DNA of 61,399 nucleotides, from the IMG/VR virus record IMGVR_UViG_3300035696_001272. One strand, 5' to 3'. The notes below the pieces were generated by a model. The model worked only from the letters and a program-made list of their open reading frames with translations. It made no database searches and was not told the DNA's origin. Source of the DNA: a virus (taxonomy: Duplodnaviria; Heunggongvirae; Uroviricota; Caudoviricetes). This document shows, piece after piece, positions 8,770 through 54,429 of the stretch. Within the stretch, counting starts at the first letter, position 1. Each line of letters begins with the position of its first letter. The position numbers and the translations under genes were made by a program.

Positions 8770-8859
8770 GGAGATTTGCGTGAGTGGTTTAAACGGCAAC
8801 CCTGGAAAGGTTGTGGGCTCGCAAGGGTTCCGAGGGTTCGAATCCCTCAGTCTCCTCCA
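8770..8859 (+). tRNA. tRNA-Ser(GGA)
   Basis: Long variable arm, loop CT-GGA-AA; discriminator T rather than G. Confidence 0.92.
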
Positions 8860-18033: not shown

Positions 18034-20118
18034 ATGAAAACAGTTAGCATTGAGAGATATCGTAATATAGGAATCATGGCGCACATTGACGCCGGTAAGA
18101 CCACTGTATCCGAGCGTATTCTCTTCTATGCTGGTCGCATCCACGTCATGGGTGAAGTCCATGACGGGGATACCATTATGGATGATGACCCCCGCGAACG
18201 CGCTCGTGGTATAACTATCAACTCAGCCGCCACTACTGTCTATTGGCCACCTGAATCCGTTAGCCTTAATACTCATCGTATTAATCTAATCGATACTCCT
18301 GGTCACATTGACTTCACTGTAGAAGTGGAAAGGTCTCTTCGTGTCCTAGACGGAGCTGTCTGCGTATTGGACGGTTCCCAAGGCGTAGAACCTCAGACTG
18401 AACAGGTATGGCGTCAAGCCGATCGTTATAATGTAGCCCGCATCTGCTTCATCAACAAGATGGATAAGGCTGGCGCTAACTTCCAAATGTCATTGGACTC
18501 TATCAAAGAGAAACTGGGTGTCCACGCTGTTCCCATTCAATTGCCATTGGGCGAAGAGGAACAGTTCAAAGGTATTATTGATCTCATCAATATGAGGCTC
18601 ATTACTTTTGATGACACTTCAAAGGGTAAAAAGTTCAATCTAACTTCAATTCCCGAAGACATGTTGGCCACGGCCCAAAAGGCTCGTGACAATATGATTG
18701 AAGCCCTAGCAGATGTTAGTGATGCTATCCTAGAGAAATTCCTGGCTGGTGATCTGTCCAAAGTCTCGATTGATGAGATTCAGGCAGCTCTCCGTAAGGG
18801 AACCATCTCGCGCACTCTGTTCCCTGTTCTTTGTGGCTCTGCCCTTAAGAACAAGGGAGTTCAGATGCTCTTGGATGCAGTACTGGCTTATCTACCAGCT
18901 CCAACTGACTTGCCTGCTGTTACTGGTGTTCATCCTCGTGATGGCAATGCGCTTACTCGTAAGCTGCAAGATGATGAACCCTTGTCGGCTTTAGCCTTCA
19001 AGATTGTCAGCGAGAAGACTGGTAACCTAACTTTCATTCGAGTTTACTCAGGCGTTCTCCGTTCTGGTAGTTACGTGTACAATGCTACACGTGATGAAAC
19101 AGAACGAGTCTCTAGACTTATGCTTATGCATGCTGGAGACAGGGAGAACATTGATGTAGCCACTGCTGGCACTATTGTGGCAGCTATGGGCTTGAAGTCC
19201 AGCTACACTGGAGACTCACTTTGTGATCAAAAGAACCCCATTCTTCTAGAAAAGATGGAGTTTCCCGATCCTGTTGTGGAACTTTCAGTGGAGCCCAAGA
19301 CTCAAGAAGACTTGGACAAGTTGGCCATTGGTCTACAGAAAATGCTGCTTGAAGACCCGTCTCTCAAGTCCTACACTGATCCAGACACCTCTCAAACTAT
19401 TTTGAAGGGTATGGGTGAGTTACATCTTGAGATCGTTGTTGACAAGCTTCGTACCAACCACAACGTCAATGTTAACACTGGTCAGCCTCGCGTGTCTTAT
19501 CGTGAGACTATTACCAAGGTTGGCTTTGGAAATCATAAGCACCAAGCCCAAAATGGTGGTAAAGGTGTCTATGGTCACGTGGTCTTGGATGTCAAACCAG
19601 GCGAAAGAGGTTCTGGCTTTGTCTTCAAGTCTGAAGTGGTTGGTGGTTCTATTCCAAAGGAATTCATCTCCTCTGTTGAAAAAGGTATCAAAAATACCAT
19701 GCAACGAGGAGTTATTTCCGGCAACCCAATGGTTGATGTGGAAGTAACTGTCACTGATGGTAGCACACATTCAGTTGATGGATGCGCTTTGGGATTTGAA
19801 TTGGCAGGCTCTAAAGCCTTCCAAGAAGCCGTCAAGGCAGCCAAGCCAGTTATCTTAGAACCTCTCATGGCAGTAGAGGTAGTGACTCCGGAAGATTATT
19901 TGGGACCAATTATTGGCACCATTAGTGCTCGTAGCGGTCAACTTCGCAATCAATCTTCACGAGGTAATGCTCGTGTGGTTGAGGCATTGGTGCCGTTGCG
20001 CAATCTCTTTGGATTTACCACAGAGCTTCGAGGACAATCGCAAGGTCGTGCTCAAGGCTCTATGAAGTTTTCTCATTATGAGATTAGTTCTCTTAAGCCA
20101 GAGGAAATTAAAGATTGA
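18034..20118 (+). CDS. fusA: elongation factor G
   Basis: AHIDAGKTT, RGITI, DTPGHIDF, NKMD, GSAL, GMGELHLEI; 694 aa with domains I-V. Confidence 0.96.
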   Translation: MKTVSIERYRNIGIMAHIDAGKTTVSERILFYAGRIHVMGEVHDGDTIMDDDPRERARGITINSAATTVYWPPESVSLNTHRINLIDTPGHIDFTVEVERSLRVLDGAVCVLDGSQGVEPQTEQVWRQADRYNVARICFINKMDKAGANFQMSLDSIKEKLGVHAVPIQLPLGEEEQFKGIIDLINMRLITFDDTSKGKKFNLTSIPEDMLATAQKARDNMIEALADVSDAILEKFLAGDLSKVSIDEIQAALRKGTISRTLFPVLCGSALKNKGVQMLLDAVLAYLPAPTDLPAVTGVHPRDGNALTRKLQDDEPLSALAFKIVSEKTGNLTFIRVYSGVLRSGSYVYNATRDETERVSRLMLMHAGDRENIDVATAGTIVAAMGLKSSYTGDSLCDQKNPILLEKMEFPDPVVELSVEPKTQEDLDKLAIGLQKMLLEDPSLKSYTDPDTSQTILKGMGELHLEIVVDKLRTNHNVNVNTGQPRVSYRETITKVGFGNHKHQAQNGGKGVYGHVVLDVKPGERGSGFVFKSEVVGGSIPKEFISSVEKGIKNTMQRGVISGNPMVDVEVTVTDGSTHSVDGCALGFELAGSKAFQEAVKAAKPVILEPLMAVEVVTPEDYLGPIIGTISARSGQLRNQSSRGNARVVEALVPLRNLFGFTTELRGQSQGRAQGSMKFSHYEISSLKPEEIKD

Positions 20119-21873: not shown

Positions 21874-22530
21874 ATGTTAGATAAACCTATGATTATAGGC
21901 TGTGATGAGGTCGGTTACGGCTGTTTAGCCGGTCCATTGGTTGTGGCAGGTGTCAGGGCTCCCAAAGATTGGGCGCTAGAGGGCCTAAACGATTCTAAGA
22001 AATTGTCCGCCAAGAAACGTGAGGTCATGCGCGGTAAGCTCCACAAGCTCATCCAAGATAAGGTTATAACTTGGCACCTGGCTGAACGAAGCAACATCAT
22101 CATTGACAAACATGGAGTAGCGGTAGCTCTCAAGGATGCCTATGTAGAAGTTTTCCACGCTTTGTATCAGCCAGATTCTTTGATTATTAGCGATGGAATT
22201 TTAAAATTTGACAGCCTGGGCGTGGATGATTATGATAAGATGTCCGTCATCAAAGCCGACACCAAGTTCCCAACGGTAATGGCTGCTTCTATTTTAGCCA
22301 AGACATATCGTGATGAGAAGATGCACAAGCTCCATCAGGACTATCCTAATTATGGTTGGGACTCAAATGTAGGTTATGGCTCTAAGGATCACCTTGAGGC
22401 CATCGTGAAACATGGTCCTTGTTCATTACACCGATTCTCTTATGCCCCTATAAAGAATATGAAGTTGGCCGACACGAGGCAGCTAGGACTTCCCTTATTG
22501 GAAGATTATCTCAATGGAAAACCTGTATAA
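21874..22530 (+). CDS. rnhB: ribonuclease HII
   Basis: GCDEVGYGCLAGP, DSKKL, AASILAK, GYG, HR. Confidence 0.93.
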   Translation: MLDKPMIIGCDEVGYGCLAGPLVVAGVRAPKDWALEGLNDSKKLSAKKREVMRGKLHKLIQDKVITWHLAERSNIIIDKHGVAVALKDAYVEVFHALYQPDSLIISDGILKFDSLGVDDYDKMSVIKADTKFPTVMAASILAKTYRDEKMHKLHQDYPNYGWDSNVGYGSKDHLEAIVKHGPCSLHRFSYAPIKNMKLADTRQLGLPLLEDYLNGKPV

Positions 22531-23221
22531 TGTCAATGGACTTATCTTTTGGTCCGAAGAGGAAATTCGCTTGCGCGAAATGCTAAAGAACCATTTTGTA
22601 GCTGCAGTTTCCAATAATCTAAAGACTCAGAACCGAGGGTTTGAAATTATCCAGGTAGAAGCTCCTTTACTTACGCCTCATGAGTTTATTAACTCAAACT
22701 ATTCTGGACGAGATACATTTGGGTTGGATGAGGAAAACGAGATGGCAACTCATTGTCAATTTGTTTTACGTCCCGAGACAACGATGGGAACTTACAAGGC
22801 CATTGAGCATCTGCTTAGTAATTACAATGAACGTAAGGTTAAGCTACCAGCATGTGTTTGGCAACACGGAAAGAGCTTTAGGCGTGAGCAAGATCAGCCC
22901 ACCAAGTTTATGAGATTAAAGGAATTTTACCAGCTAGAGTTCCAGATTGCTTACAGTCCAACCACCGCTAACGATTATTCAATTAGTTTGATCCCGGCAG
23001 TGCAACAAGCTATTTCAGAAATGATCGGACCATGTCACGTGGAAGCAAGTGATCGATTGCCTGATTACTCTGAAATTACTGTGGATATAATATGCGACAA
23101 GACTAAGATGGAAGTTTGTTCCATTTCCAAGAGGAAAGACTTCCCACTTGCCAAAATTCTGGAAGTGGCTATTGGAACTGACCGCTGTGTATTTAATTTT
23201 CTAAATAAAGGACAACAATGA
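22514..23221 (+). CDS. minimal class II aminoacyl-tRNA synthetase core, GlyRS (alpha2)-like
   Basis: LRPET, GKSFRRE...RLKEFYQLE (motif 2), EVAIGTDR (motif 3); only 235 aa, no anticodon-binding domain. Confidence 0.75.
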   Translation: MENLYNVNGLIFWSEEEIRLREMLKNHFVAAVSNNLKTQNRGFEIIQVEAPLLTPHEFINSNYSGRDTFGLDEENEMATHCQFVLRPETTMGTYKAIEHLLSNYNERKVKLPACVWQHGKSFRREQDQPTKFMRLKEFYQLEFQIAYSPTTANDYSISLIPAVQQAISEMIGPCHVEASDRLPDYSEITVDIICDKTKMEVCSISKRKDFPLAKILEVAIGTDRCVFNFLNKGQQ

Positions 23222-26479: not shown

Positions 26480-26554
26480 GCGGGTATGGTATAGGGGTTG
26501 TGCCCAAGCCTTCCAAGCTTGAGAGGACCGGTTCGATTCCGGCTACCCGCTCCA
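26480..26554 (+). tRNA. tRNA-Gly(TCC)
   Basis: GCGGGTA/TACCCGC, U73, loop CT-TCC-AA. Confidence 0.93.
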
Positions 26555-26740: not shown

Positions 26741-26815
26741 GCGGATATAATTCAGTGGTAGAATGTCTGCTTGCCAAGCAGAATGTCGTGGGTTCGAGCC
26801 CCACTATCCGCTCCA
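26741..26815 (+). tRNA. tRNA-Gly(GCC)
   Basis: Canonical, loop TT-GCC-AA, U73. Confidence 0.96.
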
Positions 26816-26947: not shown

Positions 26948-27023
26948 GCTGCCATAGTTCAATGGACTAGAACTTCTGTTTGCCGAACAGAGAATGTGGG
27001 TTCGATTCCCACTGGCCGCTCCA
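26948..27023 (+). tRNA. tRNA-Gly(GCC), atypical second copy
   Basis: Loop TT-GCC-GA, T3:C70 mismatch, U73, CCA. Confidence 0.85.
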
Positions 27024-27047: not shown

Positions 27048-27125
27048 GCGGGTGTGGCTCAGTGGCGACGGCATCTGCCTTCCAAGCAGACATCATCATG
27101 GGTTCGAGTCCCATCACCCGCTCCA
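27048..27125 (+). tRNA. tRNA-Gly(TCC), second copy
   Basis: GCGGGTG/CACCCGC, loop CT-TCC-AA, irregular D arm. Confidence 0.88.
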
Positions 27126-28338: not shown

Positions 28339-29298
28339 ATGAGCAACACTGACCTAATTAAAGAGCTGAGAGCACTAACCCAAGCGGGCATGAAGGACTG
28401 TAAGGATGCCCTTGAAGAAGCTAATTGGGATTTGCAGAAAGCTGTTGATATTGTTAAGGTCAAAGGTCTCAATATCGTTTCCGGTCGTGAAGGCAGAGTA
28501 GCTGCTGAAGGATTGGTGGACATTGCTCGTAATGGCGACACTTTGGCTGTCATGATTGAAGTCAATTGTCAAACCGATTTCGTGGCAAATAGCGAAGAAT
28601 TTGTTACTTTCGTCCATAACACCAAACACAAATTATATGAAGACACCGTTGCTGGTTTGCCATTCAGTGTTGATGAAGTAGAGGCTGAGCGCAAAGCTGT
28701 TGTATCTTCTACTAGAGAAAATATCGTAGTGCGTCGATGGTGGGCTGAACAATCGCAGCATCCATCCGTAAAGGTTTTTTGTTATCATCACTCTAATTCC
28801 AAGATTGGTGTTCTTGTTACCATGCGTGCACCTTCTGCACAAGCTGCTAACAATCCAGATTTCAAAGCTTTAGGCGAGGATTTGGCGATGCAAATTTGCG
28901 CCATGAATCCTTTGGCCGTCTCTCCAGATCGCATTGCTCCCGAAGAAATTGCGCGTCAGAAATCCATTTTCGAAACGCAACTCAAGGAAATGAATAAGCC
29001 AGAAGCGCAATGGGCCAGAATTCTGGAAGGCAAGTTCCGTAAGTGGAACACAGAAGTTTGTTTGCTAGAACAAGAGTCAGTGGTTATTCCAAAGACAACT
29101 GTTGGGCAAGTAATTAAAAATGTCGGAGCCAAACTAGGTGGAGAAGTTCACGTCGTGAATTTCGTTCGCTGTCAAGTTGGTGAAGGCATTGAAAAGAAAC
29201 AAGACAACCTCGCTGAGGAAGTCGCTAAGATGACTCGTGCAGAAACTCCTGAAGATGCATTTGTCAGACACTTAGTAGATAAAATGAAGGACGCATAA
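28339..29298 (+). CDS. tsf: elongation factor Ts
   Basis: IKELRALTQAGMKDCKDAL, EVNCQTDFVA, LLEQ, FVRCQVGEGIEK. Confidence 0.95.
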   Translation: MSNTDLIKELRALTQAGMKDCKDALEEANWDLQKAVDIVKVKGLNIVSGREGRVAAEGLVDIARNGDTLAVMIEVNCQTDFVANSEEFVTFVHNTKHKLYEDTVAGLPFSVDEVEAERKAVVSSTRENIVVRRWWAEQSQHPSVKVFCYHHSNSKIGVLVTMRAPSAQAANNPDFKALGEDLAMQICAMNPLAVSPDRIAPEEIARQKSIFETQLKEMNKPEAQWARILEGKFRKWNTEVCLLEQESVVIPKTTVGQVIKNVGAKLGGEVHVVNFVRCQVGEGIEKKQDNLAEEVAKMTRAETPEDAFVRHLVDKMKDA

Positions 29299-50432: not shown

Positions 50433-50945
50433 ATGAGAGACCACGAAATGAAAGAGGCGGCTGAAGCCCGTGCCTCCCAAGAAGACCCTATTGTAATGTA
50501 CCTGATTGTTCATGAATCGCTGAACATGAGTATAGGTAAAACGGCTGCACAATGTGCCCACGCATCTTCGATGTTGATGATAGAGTACTTTGATTTAAAA
50601 ACCGATTCTTCCAAACTTCATAAAAAAATTGTGTCTGATGTTTCTTATCAATGCGAAGAAGGAGTATATCCAGAGTGCGATCTTGATAAGAAAAATTACG
50701 CAGAAATGTCTCGCAAACTTTCCATTTATGGTGAGTGGATGAAATCTTCTTTCCGTAAAGTTGTGCTTCGAGCCTCTGACAAAGAGTGGGAAAGGCTCAA
50801 GGAAGAATTCAAAGATTCATCTTTAATAGTGAGAGACGCGGGTTTGACAGAAGTTGCACAAGGCAGCGAGACGGTTATAGGTCTTTGGCCAATGCGCAAA
50901 AGCCAAGTTTCCAAAACTGTCAGGCGTTTGCAAGTTCTCAAATAA
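50433..50945 (+). CDS. peptidyl-tRNA hydrolase, Pth2 type
   Basis: LNMSIGKTAAQCAHA, RKVVLR, VRDAGLTEV...T.IGLWP. Confidence 0.88.
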   Translation: MRDHEMKEAAEARASQEDPIVMYLIVHESLNMSIGKTAAQCAHASSMLMIEYFDLKTDSSKLHKKIVSDVSYQCEEGVYPECDLDKKNYAEMSRKLSIYGEWMKSSFRKVVLRASDKEWERLKEEFKDSSLIVRDAGLTEVAQGSETVIGLWPMRKSQVSKTVRRLQVLK

Positions 50946-53086: not shown

Positions 53087-53381
53087 GAGTCAGATTAGAC
53101 GAGAGAGAAAACAAAGGCGCAGTAAACAGCGAAATCTTAATAGACAACTTAAGAAAAAGCTATTTGGACATTTGCATATTGCGCCCTGTTATTATTGCAG
53201 GTTAATTTTTCTGATAGATGAATTAACTATAGAGCACATAATTCCACTATGTTTAGGTGGAACCAATGAGCACTCCAATATAGCACTAGCTTGTCAGCCG
53301 TGTAATAATGCACGTGGCAAAGAAGCCTGGTTCCAAAAACAAGAAATCAATAAGAAGAATTATGAACAATATCACGCCTAA
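53070..53381 (+). CDS. HNH endonuclease
   Basis: CYYC...TIEHIIP...GGTN...NIALACQPCN. Confidence 0.85.
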   Translation: MNNLSKSQIRRERKQRRSKQRNLNRQLKKKLFGHLHIAPCYYCRLIFLIDELTIEHIIPLCLGGTNEHSNIALACQPCNNARGKEAWFQKQEINKKNYEQYHA

Positions 53382-54429
53382 TGTCATATCTAAAATTGGC
53401 AAAGAGCTATACAAGAACAATGCGCACCCTTTGTGTATTGTCAAAGAAAGAGTTTTCGACTATTTCGATGATTTGGCCAGGATCGAGATCGAAAGTCCCT
53501 ACGTTCCTATCGAGTATAATTTCGATAGGCTACGTGTACCTCAAGACCATCCTTCTAGACGTCCCACAGACACATACTACAAAGATGAAAAGACTTGTTT
53601 GCGCACTCATATGACTTGTTATCTATACCCTCTTGGTAAGTCTGAAACGGGCCAAAGTAAGCTCAAGTATATTACCTGTGGTGACGTCTATAGGAAAGAC
53701 GCTATCGATGCGACTCACTATCCTGTTTTCCATCAAATGGACGCCTTCTGTATTGTGAGAGATGAAGTAGATGTTAAGAAAGATCTAAGAAATAGGCTAG
53801 CTGGGCTGGTAAAATATCTGTTCGGTGACAAAGTAGAATACAAATTCTTAGAAGACTCTGAACACAAGGACATTTATTTTCCATTCACTGTAGATTCCCT
53901 AGAAGTAGTTGTTAAGTTCAAGCCAGAAGATGGTGAGGAAAAAGAGTTAGAAATCCTGGGTGCGGGCACCGTCCATCCAGATATAATGAAAGATTTGGGG
54001 CTTCCTAACAAAAAGGCTTGGGCTTTTGGTTTAGGAGTAGAAAGATTGGCTATGGTTCTATTCGATATTCCAGACATTAGATTGTTTTGGAGTACGGATG
54101 ATCGTTTCTTAAGTCAATTCCAACCGGGCAAGATTACCAAGTTCGTACCATATTCGAAGTATGCGCCCTGTTACAAGGATATTTCATTCTTTACTAGTGA
54201 TAAGTTCTCGTATAACGATATGTGCTCTATCGTCAGGGACGAAGATAAGCTCAACTTTGTTGAGTCCATCACCCTGATTGATGAGTTCAAAAACAAAGGA
54301 CGCACATCACAGTGCTACAGAATCATGTATCGCTCGATGGACAGCACTTTGAAAAATTCCGAAATTAACAAAATACAAAAATCTATTCGTGAAAGATTGA
54401 AAAAAGAATTAGAAGTTGAGATTAGATAA
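53362..54429 (+). CDS. monomeric mitochondrial-type phenylalanyl-tRNA synthetase
   Basis: NFDRL..PQDHPSR, LRTHMT, YRKDAIDATHYPVFHQ, FPFT, GLGVERLAM, then FDX-ACB domain (YKDISF...YRSMDSTL). Confidence 0.9.
   Translation: MNNITPNVISKIGKELYKNNAHPLCIVKERVFDYFDDLARIEIESPYVPIEYNFDRLRVPQDHPSRRPTDTYYKDEKTCLRTHMTCYLYPLGKSETGQSKLKYITCGDVYRKDAIDATHYPVFHQMDAFCIVRDEVDVKKDLRNRLAGLVKYLFGDKVEYKFLEDSEHKDIYFPFTVDSLEVVVKFKPEDGEEKELEILGAGTVHPDIMKDLGLPNKKAWAFGLGVERLAMVLFDIPDIRLFWSTDDRFLSQFQPGKITKFVPYSKYAPCYKDISFFTSDKFSYNDMCSIVRDEDKLNFVESITLIDEFKNKGRTSQCYRIMYRSMDSTLKNSEINKIQKSIRERLKKELEVEIR

Follow-up and report, generated by a model that had tools for sequence, protein, structure and literature searches.

How a glycyl-tRNA synthetase (GlyRS) could work without a domain for reading the anticodon is the question raised by a short gene in a 61,399-nucleotide stretch of DNA from a tailed virus (IMG/VR record IMGVR_UViG_3300035696_001272, Caudoviricetes), referred to here in its full length as the window. 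The gene is a complete open reading frame (ORF), running from ATG to TGA, and its 235-residue product, designated mini-GlyRS, consists of the catalytic core of the alpha2 enzyme (GlyRS-1) with no anticodon-binding domain. The initial annotation of this locus had proposed either a minimal synthetase or a repurposed adenylating ligase. Leaders rich in Gly codons upstream of related genes, together with two bacterial genomes in which no other GlyRS was detected, favor the former and weaken the latter, and the protein is probably an anticodon-blind, homodimeric GlyRS that would charge tRNA-Gly on its own.

Catalytic Core and Glycine Pocket

The window protein is an alpha2 GlyRS catalytic core in which the pocket and the ATP residues are kept. 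GlyRS-1 was the first match in a profile search (E 1e-20 vs. 6e-7 for the next family), PRK04173 was matched by 110 of 111 diverse family members, and the closest structure to the predicted model (pLDDT 94) was the N. equitans GlyRS 5z5e, with a Z score of 22.1 and a root-mean-square deviation (rmsd) of 2.5 Å over 226 residues. Scores against two curated GlyRS-1 models fell under their cut-offs (NF003211, 44.2 bits vs. 312; TIGR00389, 33.4 vs. 243). No match to the GlyQ profile PF02091 was obtained at E ≤ 0.1, and the pocket is of the three-glutamate type and not the Trp/Gln/Thr type. ORF, profile, fold and domain searches thus agree with the initial annotation on a stand-alone GlyRS-like core, and the class II motifs 1–3, LRPET and GKSFR that it had named were confirmed in the alignment, motif 1 reading NGLIFW..LR..EAP.

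The glycine site of alpha2 GlyRS has been described for the human enzyme as E245, E296, E522, R410, Y386, Ser/Ala524 and Ala/His/Ser408 (PMC4938167), and all seven are matched in the window protein, by E88, E142, E217, R207, Y185, A219 and S205, respectively. For this mapping, motifs were aligned by way of bacterial and archaeal GlyRS-1 sequences, and the human numbering of that study was used. Among the 111 family members the first five of these residues are invariant or at least 90% conserved and S205 is likewise invariant or nearly so, while the A219 position, which corresponds to the residue involved in alanine exclusion, alternates between Ala and Ser. R123, E125, R134 and F138 of motif 2, which we take to be the ATP residues, are invariant or nearly so, as is the motif 3 arginine, R224; no Cys or His occurs in the invariant or nearly invariant columns, and the motif 2 loop is of the same length as in GlyRS-1. 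Two substitutions, Ser to Ala in motif 3 and Glu to Gln in motif 2, were considered as signs of changed specificity and rejected, both being seen in full-length GlyRS-1; Ala at the 524-type position occurs in the full-length sequences L211 and L296, and Ser or Ala is listed there (PMC4938167).

A homodimer is predicted as well. The model scored 0.83, the best control reaching 0.00, with most of the interface formed by the motif 1 region; its runs shared 96% of contacts or more, and pLDDT was 87 or higher. Of 30 proteins solved as pairs, 20 reached the mark used for calling a dimer, as did one of 23 solved as single chains, and the model could echo solved class II dimers.

The reading frame itself is intact. 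Its start overlaps an RNase HII gene and its stop the ATG of the following ORF, and the identical 235-residue protein was called on eight independently assembled contigs from ENA, JGI and Logan, the longest of 476,653 bases; a frameshift is excluded. An anticodon-domain profile, weak yet able to detect the ThrRS and ProRS domains used as controls, gave no match in any frame of the window, and a 95-residue ORF downstream was rejected as a separate anticodon domain by profile search. On these grounds the frameshift hiding a C-terminal domain, which the initial annotation had raised against itself, was rejected. That the gene arose through sequencing error, or is what remains of a decaying full GlyRS, is extremely improbable. 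Stops or frameshifts, through decay or assembly error, interrupt or shorten a few relatives (L447:5989-6710, L449:5989-6709, L019, L038 and L084), as such an explanation would have it; against it stand the eight identical contigs, 1570 relatives of like length with one longer match only, and the copies in cultured phages.

Reduction Relative to Full-Length GlyRS-1

Both mini-GlyRS and GlyRS-1 (T. thermophilus 1ATI/1B76, M. tuberculosis 8T5N, N. equitans 5Z5E; NF003211, TIGR00389) share the class IIa fold, motifs 1–3, LRPET, the amino-acid loop, the RxD strand, the three-glutamate pocket and a motif 1 dimer, predicted in the case of the former. Nonetheless, mini-GlyRS has half the length of GlyRS-1 and about 20% identity to it. 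When compared to 15 full-length sequences, three parts have been reduced. The C-terminal HGTP anticodon domain is absent, the protein stopping 11 residues past motif 3 (the initial annotation had spoken of a few) vs. 117–138 in GlyRS-1; insertion 1 is shortened, with 36 residues between motif 1 and LRPET vs. 78–102; and the insertion before motif 3 is gone, with 10 residues vs. 33–105. A tail of 4–25 residues past motif 3 is found in 94 diverse near-full-length relatives, one truncated row excepted. In a quick tree the mini family forms its own branch, separate from the GlyRS-1 sample; this and the other trees mentioned below are based on 134–246 columns and carry no approximately unbiased test.

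Family and Distribution

The family comprises 1570 matches of 129–412 residues, typically 220–250, mostly from jumbo phages. Median length is 228 among the best 120 of the 1570 relatives, and representatives at 50% identity reach down to about 30% identity with the size unchanged. Cultured carriers include the Caulobacter phage CcrBL9, the Brevundimonas phage Bambus, the Xanthomonas phage XbC2 and the Sinorhizobium phage Phosso, where the copies have been annotated as hypothetical proteins, generic synthetases or SerRS. Searches for longer fused forms, both weak for long proteins, yielded only P0121, with an unrelated N-terminal extension, and nothing by alignment. Seven members are 290–350 residues long (P0098, P0101, P0103, P0132, P0134, P0143 and P0151); the three inspected have 60–75 extra residues between motif 1 and LRPET, at the site of GlyRS insertion 1. 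A divergent LAHYS member (P0208, L276:6001-6702) lies beside ERF, SSB and Cro in an apparent small phage, so that the family may extend beyond jumbo phages. Two other compact phage synthetases were observed among the loci, a 410-residue ThrRS-like protein without the N-terminal domains (L069:9013-10245) and a 373-residue ProRS (L206:1465-2583).

Chromosomal copies are found in Rhizobium, Phenylobacterium, Devosia, Labrys and Shinella, and are rare (three of 401 sampled Alphaproteobacteria). GlyQ was also present in all five of these carrier genomes that were tested. One further copy (L086:10001-10708) lies near lipopolysaccharide genes in a 3.2-Mb Phycisphaerae chromosome that also encodes a full GlyRS-1; a Gly-rich short ORF precedes it. 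In quick trees the rhizobial group, the pair of genomes described in the next section and a group with terminator-bearing leaders are placed apart among phage sequences, which suggests several captures, presumably from phage to cell. The window protein belongs to a further, mostly phage branch, with 44–49% identity to the rhizobial and caulobacterial copies and the same pocket.

PHROGs gave no match to mini-GlyRS, and no description of the family was found in the literature searched, including term look-ups in a review on jumbo phages (PMC7824862), a search that left subscription journals mostly uncovered. The Gly-codon leaders and the genomes with mini-GlyRS only are new here.

Genomes without Another Detectable GlyRS

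A small-genome alphaproteobacterial lineage appears, from its gene inventory, to use mini-GlyRS as its only GlyRS. It is represented by G671 (0.9 Mb) and G804 (1.0 Mb, GCA_023259685.1), the only two genomes of their order. The gene lies at L305:1501-2265 in the former and at L306:1465-2232 in the latter, on contigs with housekeeping genes named from sequence (recA, rpoA and secY in G671, rbfA-like and rpmB-like in G804). Identity between the two genomes is 91% for mini-GlyRS, 88% for ThrRS, 86% for ProRS and 88% for SerRS. All 12 synthetases sought (Val, Ile, Leu, Asp, Tyr, Trp, Pro, Thr, Ser, Ala, His and Arg) were found in both. Neither GlyQ, GlyS nor a full GlyRS-1 was found in either genome; a DALR search for a GlyS remnant carries no information here, as it missed GlyS in a control genome (G001). 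In each genome the HGTP domains number exactly three and lie in ORFs whose sizes match ThrRS, ProRS and HisRS, and the tRNA-Gly genes of both are ordinary U73 types. No leader was listed for G671 by the scan for such elements. Of 59 further alphaproteobacterial genomes, GlyQ was found in 49, GlyRS-1 in eight and neither in two; when the unpublished G557 is left out, the tally becomes seven with GlyRS-1 and two of 58 with neither.

Gly-Codon Leaders Upstream of Bacterial Copies

Two unrelated kinds of leader have been detected. The first, here type 1, precedes about 75 alphaproteobacterial copies (L088-L164, 60–200 nt upstream of the gene, e.g., L113:9874-9957), which stand alone behind it, with no neighbor common across genera. 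It consists of an ORF of about 21–35 codons that stops about 90 nt ahead of the gene and has the tail (G)G-R-G-[LM]-R-V, followed by a covarying hairpin closed by GACGTAAAGCCC. The R-G pair is the anchor by which the rows were picked. Of 74 rows, 68 have a Gly before it, its codon varying synonymously (GGC in 41, GGA in 24), a further Gly occurs two codons earlier in 42 of 74, and the anchor codons CGA and GGT are rare in these genes, at about 8% each. The hairpin is 98% paired with 62 two-sided changes; none of 500 shuffles equaled it, a test that kinship inflates, and slid controls, which retain the kinship, reached at most 45%. No U-tract terminator was found in the aligned region, no such leader before other genes in five genomes, and no match in Rfam. 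The element is a candidate Gly-sensing attenuator of Alphaproteobacteria.

Type 2 leaders occur in a separate branch (L423-L427 and L440, one contig being 1.86 Mb long) and are unrelated in sequence to type 1, as exemplified by MNHIIISNIVGGGRQT and MNILIQSAKKGFGGYSLKE. Their peptides include the segments ..VGGGRQT, ..GFGGY.., ..GFGGG.. and ..NGGG.., with ..RAFGG.. in the distant phage copy L075. For L424-L427, mutually exclusive stems were folded, followed by a U-rich intrinsic terminator (in L424:5835-5950, the leader ORF with Gly codons, the alternative stems and the terminator all lie within 5835-5950); L423, L440 and L075 have leader and terminator only. Terminators were found in 10 of 125 unique non-rhizobial upstream regions. 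In seven of the 10 a leader ORF ends ahead of the terminator, and all seven of these hold two or more Gly codons; since six of the seven are kin, they represent two or three events and not seven. Rfam gave no match at threshold for type 2, the best being RcsR1 with 29 bits vs. 60.

Attenuators such as pheM/pheST, trpL and thrL likewise combine a short ORF of cognate codons with alternative hairpins and a U-rich terminator, and leaders of this kind control genes that raise the cognate charged tRNA. Those of mini-GlyRS differ in that the control codons are Gly and in being located in relatives, not in the window. Gly-codon leaders therefore fit a GlyRS, and fit poorly with a ligase that consumes glycine.

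Two rival explanations can be weighed against this evidence. One holds that the protein is a synthase of diadenosine tetraphosphate (Ap4A), or a non-catalytic regulator like HisZ or Pol-gamma B, with glycine activation as a side step. Synthetase paralogs with non-charging roles do exist, and some alpha2 GlyRSs make Ap4A. The whole glycine pocket is nonetheless under strong selection, which would be needless for a regulator, and neither the leaders nor the genomes with a sole GlyRS would be explained, so that this must be regarded as very unlikely.

According to the other, glycine would be adenylated and passed to an acceptor other than tRNA, such as a carrier protein, a host or phage protein or a small molecule. 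Amino acid:[carrier protein] ligases, among them Bll0957, and EpmA are likewise stand-alone class II cores without a tRNA-binding domain; their origin lies in atypical SerRS or LysRS, and they depend on a carrier or on EF-P as target. In favor of a ligase, paralogs of this sort have usually lost the tRNA-binding domain (PMC9437257), the fold of Bll0957 comes close to the model (Z 19.2, rmsd 3.0 Å, 218 residues aligned), and a canonical GlyRS is also encoded by, or accessible to, most carriers. Mini-GlyRS, in contrast, has the GlyRS-1 signature and a motif 2 loop of GlyRS length and lacks the SerRS-type zinc site, and no gene for a carrier or target is linked to it in the bacterial or phage loci. 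A glycine consumer would moreover not be expected under leaders that respond to a shortage of Gly-tRNA, and the two genomes without another GlyRS would be left unexplained. A ligase is, on balance, improbable.

Window Context, tRNA-Gly Genes and Neighboring Genes

The window resembles part of a jumbo phage genome, with dense genes on a single strand, 21 tRNAs, EF-G, EF-Ts, Pth2 and a single-chain PheRS, the last being a further compact synthetase of this phage (Table 1).

Table 1. Positions in the window of the mini-GlyRS gene, its motifs, the tRNA-Gly genes and other features.
Feature	Position	Strand	Remarks
mini-GlyRS gene	22514..23221	+	235 residues; GlyRS-1 catalytic core without anticodon-binding domain
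Motif 1 region	22538..22678	+	residues 9-55; conserved R21, E49, P51; most of predicted homodimer interface
LRPETT	22766..22783	+	residues 85-90; E88 = human GlyRS E245, glycine amino group (PMC4938167)
Motif 2	22862..22945	+	residues 117-144, QHGKSFRRE..RLKEFYQLEFQ; E142 = human E296
Amino-acid loop	23057..23086	+	LPDYSEITVD (GlyRS-1: LAHYS..TxD); Y185 = human Y386
E200..S205-x-R207-x-D209	23111..23140	+	R207 = conserved human R410; S205 = position 408 (Ala/His/Ser)
Motif 3	23162..23185	+	EVAIGTDR, residues 217-224; E217 = human E522; A219 = Ser/Ala524; stop 11 codons later
tRNA-Gly(UCC)	26480..26554	+	G1-C72, C2-G71, G3-C70, U73; likely substrate
tRNA-Gly(GCC)	26741..26815	+	G1-C72, C2-G71, G3-C70, U73; likely substrate
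tRNA-Gly(GCC)	26948..27023	+	U73; U3.C70 acceptor-stem mismatch
tRNA-Gly(UCC)	27048..27125	+	G1-C72, C2-G71, G3-C70, U73; likely substrate
tRNA-Ser(GGA)	8770-8859		U73; other tRNA-Ser genes of the window have G73
EF-G	18034-20118		
EF-Ts	28339-29298		
Pth2-like hydrolase	50433-50945		
Single-chain PheRS	53308-54429		373 residues, mitochondrial type; TIGR00469 above cut-off
SpoT-like N-terminal domain	54429-55058		stand-alone

Four tRNA-Gly genes with U73 lie 3.3–3.9 kb downstream of mini-GlyRS (3–4 kb away in the initial annotation), and all four have G1-C72, C2-G71 and an encoded CCA; the use of their nearness as an argument did not hold. Across 23 independent phage loci, tRNA-Gly genes within 500 nt numbered six vs. 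4.1 expected (label shuffle, p=0.15), and nearness was rejected as functional evidence. Co-occurrence in 21 of 22 near-complete phage records (by pattern) is uninformative, because the five genomes in which tRNAs were counted carry 52–59 of them. The U3.C70 variant of tRNA-Gly(GCC) is also present in L065. The window tRNA(CAU) at 1469 was rejected as Gly-like, being a register artefact that is better read with a U1.U72 mismatch and A73-CCA.

In Phosso-like phages a lone amber tRNA(CUA) lies 50–1900 nt upstream of the gene, distant from the main tRNA arrays and near CysRS, RNA ligase and Pth2 (L008:9594-9669; L029-L031, L037, L039, L041, L042, L044 and L417). The viral loci of this kind form a single group at ≥70% identity. 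Charging of this tRNA by mini-GlyRS is unsupported, since it has mostly G73 and no Gly acceptor signature. In L426 (6783-7883) and L427 (6808-7902) the next gene after mini-GlyRS, on the opposite strand, encodes SrmL, a ‘mystery ligase’ related to PheS (the NF051887 cut-off is exceeded in L426, and L427 is similar by sequence).

Neither a carrier-protein gene nor a partner gene is conserved beside mini-GlyRS, as seen in some 75 bacterial loci and in 62 independent phage groups, the commonest phage neighbor being NADAR, in nine of the 62. A stand-alone HGTP domain was found neither in five phage genomes, nor in G671 and G804, nor near the gene in 246 loci; the matches obtained belong to ThrRS, ProRS or probably HisRS.

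Proposed Mechanism and Points against It

Building on the intact gene, its fold, the conserved pocket residues and leaders and the gene inventories, the following course can be proposed. The homodimer would bind ATP and glycine in the unchanged pocket and form glycyl-AMP, from which glycine would be transferred to tRNA-Gly. The acceptor end would be recognized through U73, G1-C72, C2-G71 and probably G3-C70, with the anticodon unread. In the phage, the supply of Gly-tRNA-Gly may be kept up during infection, alongside the phage’s own tRNAs, EF-G, EF-Ts, Pth2 and single-chain PheRS, a possible benefit being that Gly-tRNA stays available where charging by the host is restricted or under attack; Mom-type DNA modification (PMC13219725) is a further candidate use of the product that was considered. 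Bacteria would have acquired the gene more than once, and most would keep it in reserve, to be turned on by slow translation at Gly codons.

Several observations weigh against this proposal. G671 and G804 are fragmented and closely related metagenome-assembled genomes, G671 being without tRNA-Trp and tRNA-Gly(GCC), and glyQ and glyS could have been lost together on one missing contig; the evidence for a sole GlyRS is therefore strong, not closed. These genomes and the leaders also sit in other branches of the family than the window protein. In type 1 leaders, CGA-GGT is near-fixed in nucleotides and GGT is paired in the consensus structure, so that the Gly signal may partly reflect RNA pairing, by which the G-rich segments of type 2 leaders may also be held. 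The G1-C72/C2-G71/U73 signature was present in 20 of 457 sampled non-Gly tRNAs (Thr, Cys and Arg, with one register artefact), so G3-C70 or other features must contribute. U73, G1-C72 and C2-G71 are bacterial Gly determinants, as are C35 and C36, in the microbial GlyRSs studied (PMC9976931), and loss of the anticodon domain should consequently lower both activity and selectivity. Mini-GlyRS, which is acidic (net charge -6, family median -5), shows no RNA-binding extension that could take the place of that domain.

The last points would be accommodated if charging required a second subunit, of different fold, for tRNA binding, the holoenzyme possibly still reading the anticodon or the elbow. 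Split PylRS and GlyQ/GlyS provide precedents, anticodon bases normally serve as Gly identity elements, an acidic core without an RNA-binding extension would need such help, and the leaders and gene inventories fit equally well. The absence of any conserved neighbor and of stand-alone HGTP domains in the loci surveyed stands against it, as do the bacterial copies standing alone behind their leader, and repeated capture of a single gene argues for a self-sufficient enzyme. A dependence on such a partner is accordingly considered unlikely, and self-sufficient charging by the homodimer is preferred.

Relation to Other Reduced Synthetases and Implications

Two parallels have been described. Tupanvirus mini-AlaRS (PMC10036535) is likewise a naturally reduced viral class II synthetase that relies on the acceptor stem only and can replace the host enzyme; it retains a tRNA-recognition domain and AlaRS was never anticodon-reading, whereas mini-GlyRS is a catalytic domain only, from an anticodon-reading ancestor. 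GlyCA urzymes (PMC11602164) are also minimal class II cores that activate glycine and have no anticodon domain, but they stem from the alpha chain of the alpha2beta2 GlyRS-B, taken from a single database record thought to be a bacterial contaminant, while the mini family, widespread and conserved, descends from GlyRS-1.

In its widest form, for which the chances appear about even, the proposal is that a third natural form of GlyRS exists, a bare core of about 230 residues that assigns glycine from the acceptor stem alone, has been spread by jumbo phages and captured by bacteria at least three times, and has replaced the canonical enzyme in one alphaproteobacterial order, where Gly codons would be decoded without anticodon reading by the synthetase. 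A survey of bacterial proteomes found that each species has one of two known GlyRS types (10.1101/2023.05.29.542759), a view that would then need correction. As a natural, selected, stand-alone GlyRS core, it would offer a direct test case within a subclass of otherwise anticodon-reading enzymes, and it is available in cultured hosts (Rhizobium, Phenylobacterium and Devosia) as well as in the four cultured phages. If the proposal is true, it would constitute capture of a core translation enzyme from phage to host, Gly-codon attenuators would join the known set, and a small anticodon-independent scaffold would become available for engineering of the genetic code.

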